Shown: positions 23,685-27,115 of the stretch, piece by piece | Numbering within the stretch: position 1 is the first letter of the stretch | How the letters are laid out: each line of letters opens with the position of its first letter | Source of the DNA: a virus | Lineage: Duplodnaviria > Heunggongvirae > Uroviricota > Caudoviricetes | Virus record (IMG/VR): IMGVR_UViG_2521172734_000002 | Strand: one strand, 5' to 3' | Length of the DNA stretch: 39,005 nucleotides | Program-made: the position numbers and the translations under genes | Notes under the pieces: model-generated | What the model saw: only the letters and a program-made list of their open reading frames with translations | The model's database searches: none | Told to the model about the DNA's origin: nothing

Positions 23685-24282
23685 TCTGCTGCCACCGGGT
23701 TCAACTTCACTGGAGCGCCGACTGGCGCAAACCTGCAGCGGGATTACTGATCTGCAGGTGCCGCTGCGTGACTTGTGGAATCCGGCAACCTGTCCGGTCA
23801 GTTTCCTGCCTTATCTCGCCTGGGCGTTCTCTGTGGATCGCTGGGACGAGAGCTGGACAGAAAGCGTCAAGCGCCAGGTGGTGAAGGATGCTTTTTATAT
23901 TCATCAGCATAAAGGGACCACCAGTGCCGTGCGGCGGGTGGTGGAGCCGTTCGGCTTTCTGATCCGCATTATTGAGTGGTGGCATACCGGAGAAACACCG
24001 GGCACGTTTCGTCTGGATATCGGCGTGCAGGACCAGGGCATCACTGAAGATACCTATCTGGAACTTGAGCGACTGATAAGCGATGCCAAACCATGTAGCC
24101 GCCACATGATCGGCATGTCCATCAACCTGCAGACCAGCGGTCCATATTGGGTGGGGGCTGCAAGCTATCTTGGCGAAGAAATCACGATCTATCCGTATAT
24201 CAACGAAACAATTATTTCTGGCGGCACCGCGCATGAAGGCGGGGCGGTCCATGTTATTGACACAATGAGAGTGAATCCATGA
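23677..24282 (+). CDS. I: Baseplate/tail protein I (P2 gpI-like)
   Basis: 201-aa ORF overlapping the J stop and the H start. Confidence 0.85.
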   Translation: MNSLLPPGSTSLERRLAQTCSGITDLQVPLRDLWNPATCPVSFLPYLAWAFSVDRWDESWTESVKRQVVKDAFYIHQHKGTTSAVRRVVEPFGFLIRIIEWWHTGETPGTFRLDIGVQDQGITEDTYLELERLISDAKPCSRHMIGMSINLQTSGPYWVGAASYLGEEITIYPYINETIISGGTAHEGGAVHVIDTMRVNP

Positions 24283-24668
24283 GCACAAAATTTTATACCC
24301 TGCTGACGGATATTGGCGCGGCGAAACTTGCCAGCGCCGCCGCGCTCGGTGTGCCTTTAAAAATTCCCCATATGGCGGTAGGCGATGGCGGCGGAACATT
24401 GCCAACGCCGGACGCAAAGCAGACAGCATTAGTAAATGAGAAACGCCGGGCTGCGCTGAATATGCTGTACATCGACCCGCAGAACAGCAGCCAGATTATT
24501 GCTGAACAGGTGATCCCTGAAAACGAGGGCGGTTGGTGGATACGTGAAGTGGGCCTGTTTGATGAGTCCGGGGCATTGATTGCCGTGGGCAACTGCCCGG
24601 AAAGCTATAAGCCGCAACTGGCTGAAGGCAGCGGGCGCACCCAGACCGTGCGCATGGTGCTGTAGTGG

Positions 24669-25415
24669 TCAAGTAATATTGGCCACGGTTTTACAGTAAA
24701 AATGGTATCTGTTCTCTGACTCTTCCGGCGTCAGCCCACCGTTATAATGGTGAGGTCTGACGCTGTTGTAGTAGTTCAATATGTAATCATTAATTTGCTG
24801 CCGGGCCTCGTCCTTGCCTGCGTAACCATTCGTTGGCACCCATTCTGTTTTCAGACTGCGGAAGAAGCGTTCCATGGGGCTGTTATCCCAGCAGTTTCCC
24901 CGCCGACTGACGCTTTGATTTATTCTGCAACGCCAGAGAAGTTGTTGATATTTAAGGCCTGTATACTGGCTTCCCTGGTCGCTATGGAACACGACATCCC
25001 GGGGTTGGCCACGCGTCTCATAGGCCATCCGCAGGGCACTGCTTATCAGTGCGGTATCGGCATGCGCTGACAGACTCCAGCCGATAACCCTGCGGGCAAA
25101 AAGATCCATAACAACCGCCAGATAGCACCAGCGATTTCCTGCCCAGAGATACGTAATATCTCCACACCATACCCGGTCTGGCTCCGGTACTGCGAACTGA
25201 CGCTCAAGCAGATTCGGCAGGCTGGTATGCTCCTGACGGGCATTTTTATACTGATGTTTTCCGGGCTGACAACTGCTCAGGTTCAGATATTTCATCAGAC
25301 GTCCGGCACGGTAACGGCTCATCGGGACGCCGTTTTGAGTCAGCATTTCAGCCAGAGTGCGCGCGCCCGCAGAGCCCCGACTTTGGTTCCACGCCCGGCG
25401 TATTTCGCTGCACAA
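24669..25415 (-). CDS. IS3-family transposase OrfB (DDE catalytic domain)
   Basis: 248 aa from the first Met; DDE integrase-like region (..[10 protein letters not shown]..); the full OrfAB would come from a -1 frameshift upstream. Confidence 0.8.
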
Positions 25416-25534
25416 CCTGACTCGTGCCGGATTAACCGTATCGCGTCGTTTTCGCCAGTACCGGTAACTGCTGCGGTGTATTTCCAGAGCAGAACACAGG
25501 CTGACAACCGTGTGGCTGTCACTTAGTCTGGCGG

Positions 25535-25882
25535 CTATCGTGAACCGTTCAGCGAGTCGGACATTAAGAGCGCGGTAGCCTTTTTTAATATCGTATTTTG
25601 TTCCTCCAGACGGCGAACTTGCTTTTCCAGCTCGCGGATACGTTGCTGGTCTGGAGTAATGGGTGTGGCAGAGGGCGTAATACCCTGGCGCTCTCGCCTG
25701 AGCTGGCGTACCCAGCTCTCAAGCGTGGTTGAACCGACATTCATCGCTTCACTGGCCTGTCGATATGAGTAGCCCTTATCAACAATCAGCTGTGCACATT
25801 CCAGCCTGAACTCAGGGGTGAAGGTTCGTTTGGTTTTCTTGTTCATTAAGTCACCTGTTTTGTGTTGTGGTGAGAATATCAC
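25535..25882 (-). CDS. IS3-family transposase OrfA (HTH)
   Basis: 115 aa; ...[28 protein letters not shown] resembles IS911 OrfA; AAAAAAG slippery heptamer near its 3' end (about 25580-25586). Confidence 0.8.
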
Positions 25883-26576
25883 CTTTCATCAGGTGGCCAA
25901 ATTTAGTGTGCCACTACATGCTGATTACCAGCAGTACGGACAATATCACCCTGAAAATCGACCCTGCTGTAGTGCTGGCAACCCGTAAATACGTGGATGA
26001 TGAAGTCCTGGAATTAAAGCTGTATGTGGATGACCAGATGAGAAACCACATTGCCGCACAAGATCCTCATTCCCAGTATGCGCAGAAACATAATCCGACA
26101 TTTACCGGAGAACCAAAAGCGCCGACGCCTGCAGCAGGAAATAACACCACGCGGATTGCGACCACTGAGTTTGTTCAGGCCGCTATTACTGCTCTGATTA
26201 ACGGTGCGCCAGCCACGCTGGACACACTGAAAGAAATTGCCGCAGCCATTAACAATGATCCGAAATTCAGTACCACCATTAACAATGCGCTGGCACTGAA
26301 AGCGCCGCTGTCGAGTCCGGCACTCACCGGAACGCCAACCGCACCTACTGCGGCACAGTCGGTCAACAATACACAAATTGCCACCACGGCATTTGTGAAA
26401 TCGGCGATTGCGGCAATGGTGGGTTCTGCACCTGCGGCACTGGATACACTGAACGAACTGGCGGCGGCGCTGGGGAATGACCCGAACTTTGCCACGACAA
26501 TGCTTAATGCACTGGCAGGTAAACAACCGCTGGACAATACGCTGACTAATTTGAGTGGAAAGGATGTAACTGGTCT

Positions 26577-26602
26577 TCTCACATACCTTGGTTTGGGAGA
26601 AG
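26577..26602. repeat. Putative invertase crossover site (left) inside H
   Basis: Contains TTGGTTTGGGAGAAG (26588-26602), a perfect inverted copy of 28213-28227; resembles the AAACC-AA-GGTTT core of gix/hix sites. Confidence 0.45.
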
Positions 26603-26917
26603 CCAGATATGTCATTCAGCGAGGAGCTAATGCCAATGGTGCATGGATACGCTGGTCAGATGGTGCAATAGAAGTATTTGGAACCGGTGGATCTAATGAT
26701 AATGGACTGGCTAAAGTTGTTTACCCAATTGCACTGCCTAAACTTTCACGTTTTATCAGTATCGCGGAAAGAATAAGAACGGATTACGAGAGCACACCTA
26801 ATAATGTTCACGTTTCAATGATCGTGGATGATCAAGTAACAAATACCGGCTTTTATGCCCGCTGCCAGATGTACGACGGCAGACCATCATCAAATGCTTT
26901 TTCCTGGAGGGTTTATT

Positions 26918-27115
26918 GTGCGCCTGTTTAATCCAGTTACTTTGACTGAAGTAATCCCCGGTCTTCATGACGTGACCGGGGCTATTGAATTACCGGAGGA
27001 CAACTGGTTTTTTACTATGACAGAAATTCCTCAGGGCATGGAGCTAACAATTAATGAGAAAGGCGAACCAATACTAATTGAGGTTAATCAGTCTCAGGGA
27101 ATACAGGCCAAATAA
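26918..27115 (+). CDS. Possible short tail-fibre assembly/chaperone ORF downstream of H
   Basis: GTG-initiated ORF of about 66 aa right after the fibre variable end, convergent with the alternative assembly gene; identity uncertain. Confidence 0.3.
   Translation: MRLFNPVTLTEVIPGLHDVTGAIELPEDNWFFTMTEIPQGMELTINEKGEPILIEVNQSQGIQAK

Follow-up and report, generated by a model that had tools for sequence, protein, structure and literature searches.

The tail-fibre gene H of a 186/P2-like prophage is interrupted by an insertion sequence (IS) of the IS3 family. The DNA analysed, here called the window, is a stretch of 39,005 nt (IMG/VR virus record IMGVR_UViG_2521172734_000002) in which a 36-kb prophage lies between rcdA and ybjL of an E. 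coli chromosome of the O111:H21 type; all coordinates refer to the window. We propose, with a probability of roughly 0.93, that an active, resident, ISEc31-like IS transposed into H of this prophage.

The Interrupted H Gene and Its Reconstruction

The layout of the interrupted gene is as follows.

24279–24660, plus strand: 5′ fragment of H, nt 1–382, consisting of codons 1–127 and the first base of codon 128 (from the list of open reading frames and the codon map)
24658–24660: left copy of the target-site duplication TGC, adjoining the IS end
24661–25918, minus strand: complete IS3-family element, ISEc31-like, 1258 bp
25919–25921: right copy of the target-site duplication TGC, adjoining the IS end
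25922–26931, plus strand: 3′ fragment of H, nt 383–1392, which begins at base 2 of codon 128 and includes the stop codon (from the excision and the alignments of relatives)

Deletion of 24661–25921, that is, of the IS and one TGC, gives an open H of 1392 nt and 463 amino acid residues. A preliminary description of this DNA had claimed such a continuous frame, and the 1392-nt open reading frame (ORF) so obtained is found in nature: it is 100% identical over 1392 nt, in a single aligned piece, to intact genes annotated as “phage tail protein” in E. coli WAT and in the O111:H21 strain 15A. The same description had put the insertion after codon 126, and this requires correction. The IS lies after nt 382 of H, within codon 128, and the duplicated TGC is made up of positions 2–3 of codon 127 and position 1 of codon 128. 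In its interrupted state, the H ORF extends from 24279 to 24665 and specifies a product of 128 residues, whose stop codon, a TAG (24663–24665), comes from the IS. Leu128 is retained by chance because the IS starts with TG.

The identity of H is given by its N-terminus and by its neighbors. Residues 1–150 of the reconstructed protein match the PF12571 Phage_tail_fib N-terminal domain over all 150 profile positions (217.9 bits, E = 7.8e-65), and the IS cuts this domain at residue 128. Immediately upstream of H are the baseplate genes V, W, J, and I. Residues 1–354 are 94–95% identical to the tail-fibre genes of deposited P2-like phages, in alignments that run through the insertion point. The features claimed for the insertion are not the product of chance, because the IS is 100% identical to many full-length copies and the predicted empty site exists in real genomes.

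The Empty Site in Related Genomes

A homologue of H was counted as contiguous when it covered at least 80% of the reconstructed gene. By this measure, 29 further genomes contain a contiguous H homologue, at 87.6–98% identity, so that there are 31 such genomes in all, including WAT and 15A. A check for a different native H sequence at the junction came out negative, since the relatives lacking the IS are contiguous there. When aligned to the intact relatives, the blocks on the two sides of the IS overlap by 5 nt, namely the single TGC and a chance TG.

The window is 100.000% identical to 15A, with 0 mismatches over 20,384 + 13,087 = 33,471 aligned nt, and the alignment takes in the host genes ybjL and ybjM. 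The only difference in the aligned region is the IS with its TGC duplication; 15A has a single TGC. No gene of the aligned prophage region is flagged as a pseudogene in 15A. From the WAT prophage, the window differs by three single-nucleotide polymorphisms (two synonymous and one V/M) and by one intergenic 3-bp indel. The indel is an ATT at 8679–8681, in the intergenic segment after a replication gene, a place at which there is no difference from 15A. The claim that the lysogeny genes and cargo are intact thus holds at the sequence level: their bases are identical to those of 15A, and the int-cI end of the prophage, positions 1–4278, shows no difference from WAT.

The filled site, by contrast, is very rare. 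The H/IS junction is present in 0 of 5,426 complete E. coli genomes. The exact 36-nt H/IS junction has no match in genome, viral, and metagenome contig collections, a result that is weak when taken alone, as GTDB holds one genome per species. The exact 128-residue truncated product is found only on AIHQ01000012.1 (GCA_000250535.2), which is 100% identical to the window across the 6.4-kb stretch compared and evidently the record from which it came, and in the Logan assembly SRR099152. The intact 463-residue H protein is found on 36 contigs. These comparisons give good support to an insertion that is recent, simple, and strain-specific, and the first two of these words are those of the preliminary description.

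The same data bear on whether the empty state might instead be the derived one. In such a history the insertion would be ancestral, and 15A and the others would have regained H by precise excision; the empty site of 15A, exact and with a single TGC, is indeed what excision would leave. However, WAT and the 29 further genomes, whose divergence varies (90–100% identity), carry an uninterrupted H, the filled junction is found in a single assembly, and parsimony places the insertion on a terminal branch. Precise excision of IS3-family elements is, moreover, a rare event, which also counts against this history. We consider it scarcely credible.

The IS Element

The IS lies in the minus strand, in the orientation opposite to that of H. 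Its parts are as follows.

25893–25918, minus strand: transposase-proximal terminal inverted repeat (IRL), TGTAGTGGCACACTAAATTTGGCCAC on the minus strand
24661–24686, plus strand: distal terminal inverted repeat (IRR), TGTAGTGGTCAAGTAATATTGGCCAC, forming the repeat pair with IRL
25846–25535, minus strand: orfA, 103 residues, with the HTH_Tnp_1 domain (from the ORF list and Pfam)
24669–25586, minus strand: orfB frame, the C-terminal part of OrfAB with the rve catalytic core, open to 24669
25586–25580, minus strand: slippery heptamer A AAA AAG for −1 programmed frameshifting, read in frame 0 as TTA AAA AAG

Thus, the imperfect terminal inverted repeats, orfA/orfB, the A AAA AAG motif, and the TGC duplication that had been claimed for this element are all present, in a segment of 1258 bp from 24661 to 25918. 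The termini, TGTAGTGG...CCACTACA, are of the TG...CA type. The terminal inverted repeats are 26 nt long and are matched at 20 of 26 positions (77%). The phase of the slippery heptamer suits −1 slippage, in that its first A occupies codon position 3. The predicted −1 shift would produce a 392-residue OrfAB fusion, encoded by IS positions 73–1250 and ending at window position 24669. The exact 392-residue fusion is an existing NCBI protein, and in RefSeq identical copies of the IS are annotated with a two-piece coding sequence, labeled “programmed frameshift”, that has the same coordinates (IS 73–1250). The catalytic residues of OrfAB are D230, D290, and E326, and the 35 residues between D290 and E326 make a DD(35)E arrangement.

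OrfAB matches the Pfam families HTH_Tnp_1 (PF01527, E = 1.9e-15) and rve (PF00665, E = 5.3e-27). Against the NCBIfam model NF033516 (transpos_IS3, “IS3 family transposase”), which has a cut-off of 160 bits, it scores 360.6 bits over profile positions 1–368 of 369. Every sequence criterion that can be applied here places 24661–25918 in the IS3 family. The specific name is less firm. The sole specifically named relative is a partial protein of the same cluster, 94% identical and labeled “IS3-like element ISEc31 family transposase”, and annotations in plasmid and phage records give only “IS3 family transposase”, with no specific IS name. We therefore call the element ISEc31-like; it may be ISEc31 itself or a sister isoform. 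IS3 proper was considered and rejected, as its ends and OrfA differ from those of the present element. The C-terminus of OrfA and the context of the slippery site, ATATTAAAAAAGGCTACCGCGCTC, presumably resemble those of IS911.

The IS is abundant. It has a match in 2,416 of the 5,426 complete E. coli genomes, at a median of 2 and a maximum of 17 places per genome. In 938 E. coli records the best match is at least 99% identical, and the full-length copies among the matches listed have 100% identity. A second identity class in E. coli genomes lies at 90–95%. Copies are also found on plasmids, mainly of Escherichia and in some cases of other enterobacteria, and the exact orfA protein sequence is present on at least 1000 contigs. 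The IS is likely to be active because of the 938 records at or above 99% and the 100%-identical full-length copies, on chromosomes and plasmids alike.

The flanks of other copies bear on the TGC duplication. Of four other copies of the same IS, two are flanked by 3-bp duplications, TAT/TAT in melB and GAT/GAT between traP and trbD; therefore, a 3-bp duplication is normal for this IS. The other two copies have no target duplication, their flanks being TCT/GCC and GGG/GTG, and one of the two sits between two different truncated genes, one for a GTPase and the other ypjA/ehaD. This suggests later rearrangement, by IS-mediated deletion or by recombination, and makes no case against the 3-bp duplication.

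In other E. coli strains, 100%-identical copies of the IS split other prophage structural genes. The same IS is present in the gene for a head-tail joining protein in E. coli strain E2863 and its relatives (NZ_AP018802.1, 613258–615115), and in the gene for the tail terminator gpU in several STEC genomes.

Proposed Course of the Insertion and Its Consequences

We propose that the ISEc31-like, IS911-related element inserted into H with duplication of the 3-bp TGC, splitting H after nt 382. Transposition would have been by copy-out/paste-in through a circular intermediate, the route typical of the IS3 family. Translation from the H start would then give only 128 of the 463 residues and break off within the conserved N-terminal domain of the fibre. 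The insertion is about 1.9 kb upstream, in window coordinates, of a crossover site at which a serine invertase is predicted to swap the receptor-binding tip. Since the IS is in the constant part of H, both tip variants would be lost, neither being joinable to the N-terminus. All other phage genes, among them those for the integrase, CI/CII, replication, head, sheath/tube/baseplate, and lysis, along with PD-Lambda-1 and ShosTA, are unchanged, and a lysogen would be expected to keep its immunity and its cargo.

In P2, the genes V, W, J, I, and H form one transcription unit, and the sheath and tube genes are under a late promoter of their own. From this operon layout it is expected that induction would release particles that are complete but fibreless and that do not adsorb. 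Some polarity on genes co-transcribed downstream of H is also probable. Loss of the fibres and of infectivity would follow from the truncation.

Points That Weigh against This Reading

Several points count against the proposed insertion or against its consequences. The first concerns the source of the sequence, which is a draft assembly. SRR099152 may be the same read set, in which case the junction would have been seen in one data set rather than two. A repeat-induced mis-join could have placed an IS copy in H on paper, the real chromosome having an intact H like that of 15A. In favor of this, the source is a draft whole-genome shotgun assembly (AIHQ01000012.1), the IS is a multi-copy repeat (median 2, maximum 17 places per genome), the complete genome of 15A, which is clonally identical, has no IS at this site, and the Logan contig breaks off after the first 25 nt of the IS, as is usual for short-read contigs that run into a repeat. 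However, both junctions are exactly at the IS termini and are accompanied by a perfect TGC duplication that is single in the empty site, which is the signature of transposition. A mis-join between other IS-flanked loci would not leave the halves of one gene in register on both sides. In addition, a second assembler, that of Logan, yields the same left junction. An assembly artefact is, in our view, highly improbable.

The second point is that the right junction offers a way around the predicted loss of fibres or infectivity. This junction makes an in-frame ATG (25918–25920), at codon 127 of H, within an ORF of 354 residues (25867–26931) that reads from the IS into the 3′ part of H. In principle, translation from the junction ATG could yield a truncated protein without residues 1–126. 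On this basis one might envision a functional remodelling, in which transcripts reading out of the IS cover the 3′ part of H and the downstream genes, giving a fibre without its N-terminus or a free receptor-binding protein; the in-frame ATG and the frame open from 25867 to 26931 are what speak for it. A promoter scan of the region, however, found no convincing outward promoter for the 3′ part of H. There is no outward sigma-70-like promoter at that IS end, and the scan gave a single site in the region, at 24523–24495 of the minus strand, where 2.1 would be expected by chance. Visual inspection shows no Shine-Dalgarno sequence close before the junction ATG, nor any other obvious ribosome-binding site there. 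The product would lack residues 1–126 of the 150-residue PF12571 domain and would presumably be unable to mount on the baseplate. Furthermore, the event is seen in one strain only, with no sign of selection. A functional remodelling is thus extremely doubtful.

The third point concerns the frameshift. A stimulatory RNA structure was sought 3′ of the A AAA AAG motif, and the stability of the RNA there (minimum free energy −38.9 kcal/mol, z = −1.52 versus shuffled controls) is not clearly above that of the shuffles. The fourth is that the current tip of H is followed by a 65-residue ORF only, not by a full assembly gene, which bears on the infectivity of the uninterrupted prophage of 15A and WAT.

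A different view of the insertion in H, as a reversible polymorphism, can also be stated. Within one O111:H21 clone, with the site filled in GCA_000250535.2 and empty in 15A at 100% identity of the flanks, the IS might toggle a defence-carrying prophage between transmissible and “grounded” states. If this were true, the finding of the same IS in the head-tail joining protein and gpU genes would mean a target preference or selection for grounding with the cargo kept. We hold it to be very unlikely, and we retain a simple transposition of the resident ISEc31-like element into H as the best explanation.

The Invertible Tip Segment

The region downstream of the insertion contains the following features.

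26576–26602: left crossover site, inside H at a GLGE motif, where the constant part of H ends; inverted repeat with 28213–28239
26918–27115, same orientation as H: 65-residue ORF downstream of the current H tip, with no family match
27084–27692, minus strand: full tail-fibre assembly gene, PF02413 Caudo_TAP (family search)
27689–28267, minus strand: alternative H tip with a Collar domain (family search)
28213–28239: right crossover site, 27 nt, matching the left site at 22 of 27 positions (81%)
28289–28861, adjacent to the segment: serine invertase, 190 residues, with Resolvase PF00239 and HTH_7 PF02796 domains (Pfam)

Most relatives match H only to about nt 1063, or residue 354, where homology breaks at the left crossover site. 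By its layout, the region 26576–28861 is a putative invertible tail-fibre switch of the Gin/Cin/Pin/Hin type, like the Mu G and P1 C segments, in a P2-like prophage. The current tip of H (residues ~355–463, in the region 26603–27115) is without a close relative in a set of 50,697 phage records, where the best match reaches 36% identity. Downstream of H and in its orientation there is only the 65-residue ORF; the full Caudo_TAP gene (PF02413) is inverted inside the invertible segment. The 65-residue ORF, which may encode a minimal or truncated chaperone, overlaps this convergent, full-length assembly gene, and WAT and 15A share this arrangement.

The Prophage and Its Cargo

The prophage genes are in the order int, a DUF4041 protein gene, CI, CII, replication genes, cargo, Q-P-O-N-M-L, lysis genes, V-W-J-I-H, the invertase gene, FI-FII-E-T-U-D, and ogr. 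Deposited phages, for example vB_EcoM-813R9, match the left 24.6 kb of the window at about 96% nucleotide identity over 82% of its length, and because of this identity the phage type is taken to be a viable one. Three further loci were noted.

1137–2813, minus strand: 558-residue DUF4041/T5orf172 protein, between the integrase and CI; PD-Lambda-1 model, 400 bits
10254–11790: phosphoribosyltransferase and DprA-like pair, between the replication genes and the portal gene; ShosT 65 bits and ShosA 233 bits (ShosTA)
20208–21780: 127-residue ORF and 404-residue PcfJ-domain protein, in the late region between the virion-morphogenesis gene and V

The 127-residue ORF of the last locus has no family match, and the 127-residue ORF and the PcfJ-domain protein have no PADLOC match.

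Significance

The event belongs to known biology, as follows. An abundant IS3-family element has made a strain-specific insertion in a prophage tail-fibre gene, which is ordinary and points to neither a novel mechanism nor a novel type of element. Its importance is mainly for annotation: H, now in two fragments, is best entered as a single pseudogene split by a mobile element, and the prophage counted as complete but probably non-infectious. The source assembly and 15A form a natural near-isogenic pair, with 0 differences in 33.5 kb apart from the IS. Such a pair is suited to asking what a non-spreading P2-like prophage contributes, be it through immunity, PD-Lambda-1, or ShosTA. The case also illustrates the speed with which IS activity can ground a prophage.

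Comparison with Known Systems

The reconstructed H resembles gpH of the P2/186 family (Peduoviridae) in its PF12571 N-terminus, in its place after V-W-J-I, and in having a constant N-terminal and shaft part followed by a variable C-terminal tip. In the P2 family, gpH makes up the side fibres and is required for adsorption. At 463 residues the reconstructed H is shorter than gpH of P2. In the P2-family order, V-W-J-I-H-G, the assembly gene comes after H, whereas here the 65-residue ORF follows H in the present orientation of the segment. Predicted tip switching by a serine invertase is a feature of this prophage; P2 itself is not known to have a Gin/Cin-type invertible segment or a serine invertase.

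The IS resembles ISEc31, its nearest named element, and IS911, the well-studied model, both of the IS3 family, in its size class (~1.2–1.55 kb), its TG...CA ends, its orfA/orfB organization, its A AAA AAG motif, its DD(35)E triad, and its 3-bp duplication. In this family, −1 frameshifting takes place at motifs of the A6G/A7 type, and target-site duplications are of 3–5 bp according to the subgroup, 3 bp being the length for IS911-like elements. IS911 has a stimulatory RNA structure, whereas a counterpart for the present element is not demonstrated (z = −1.52).

Finally, the prophage is like the IS-inactivated, or “grounded”, prophages, in that a single IS disrupts a structural gene of a prophage that is complete in other respects and encodes anti-phage systems, here PD-Lambda-1 and ShosTA. 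It differs in that the event, which as yet shows no sign of fixation or selection, is limited to a single strain, for which there is an isogenic comparator with an empty site.

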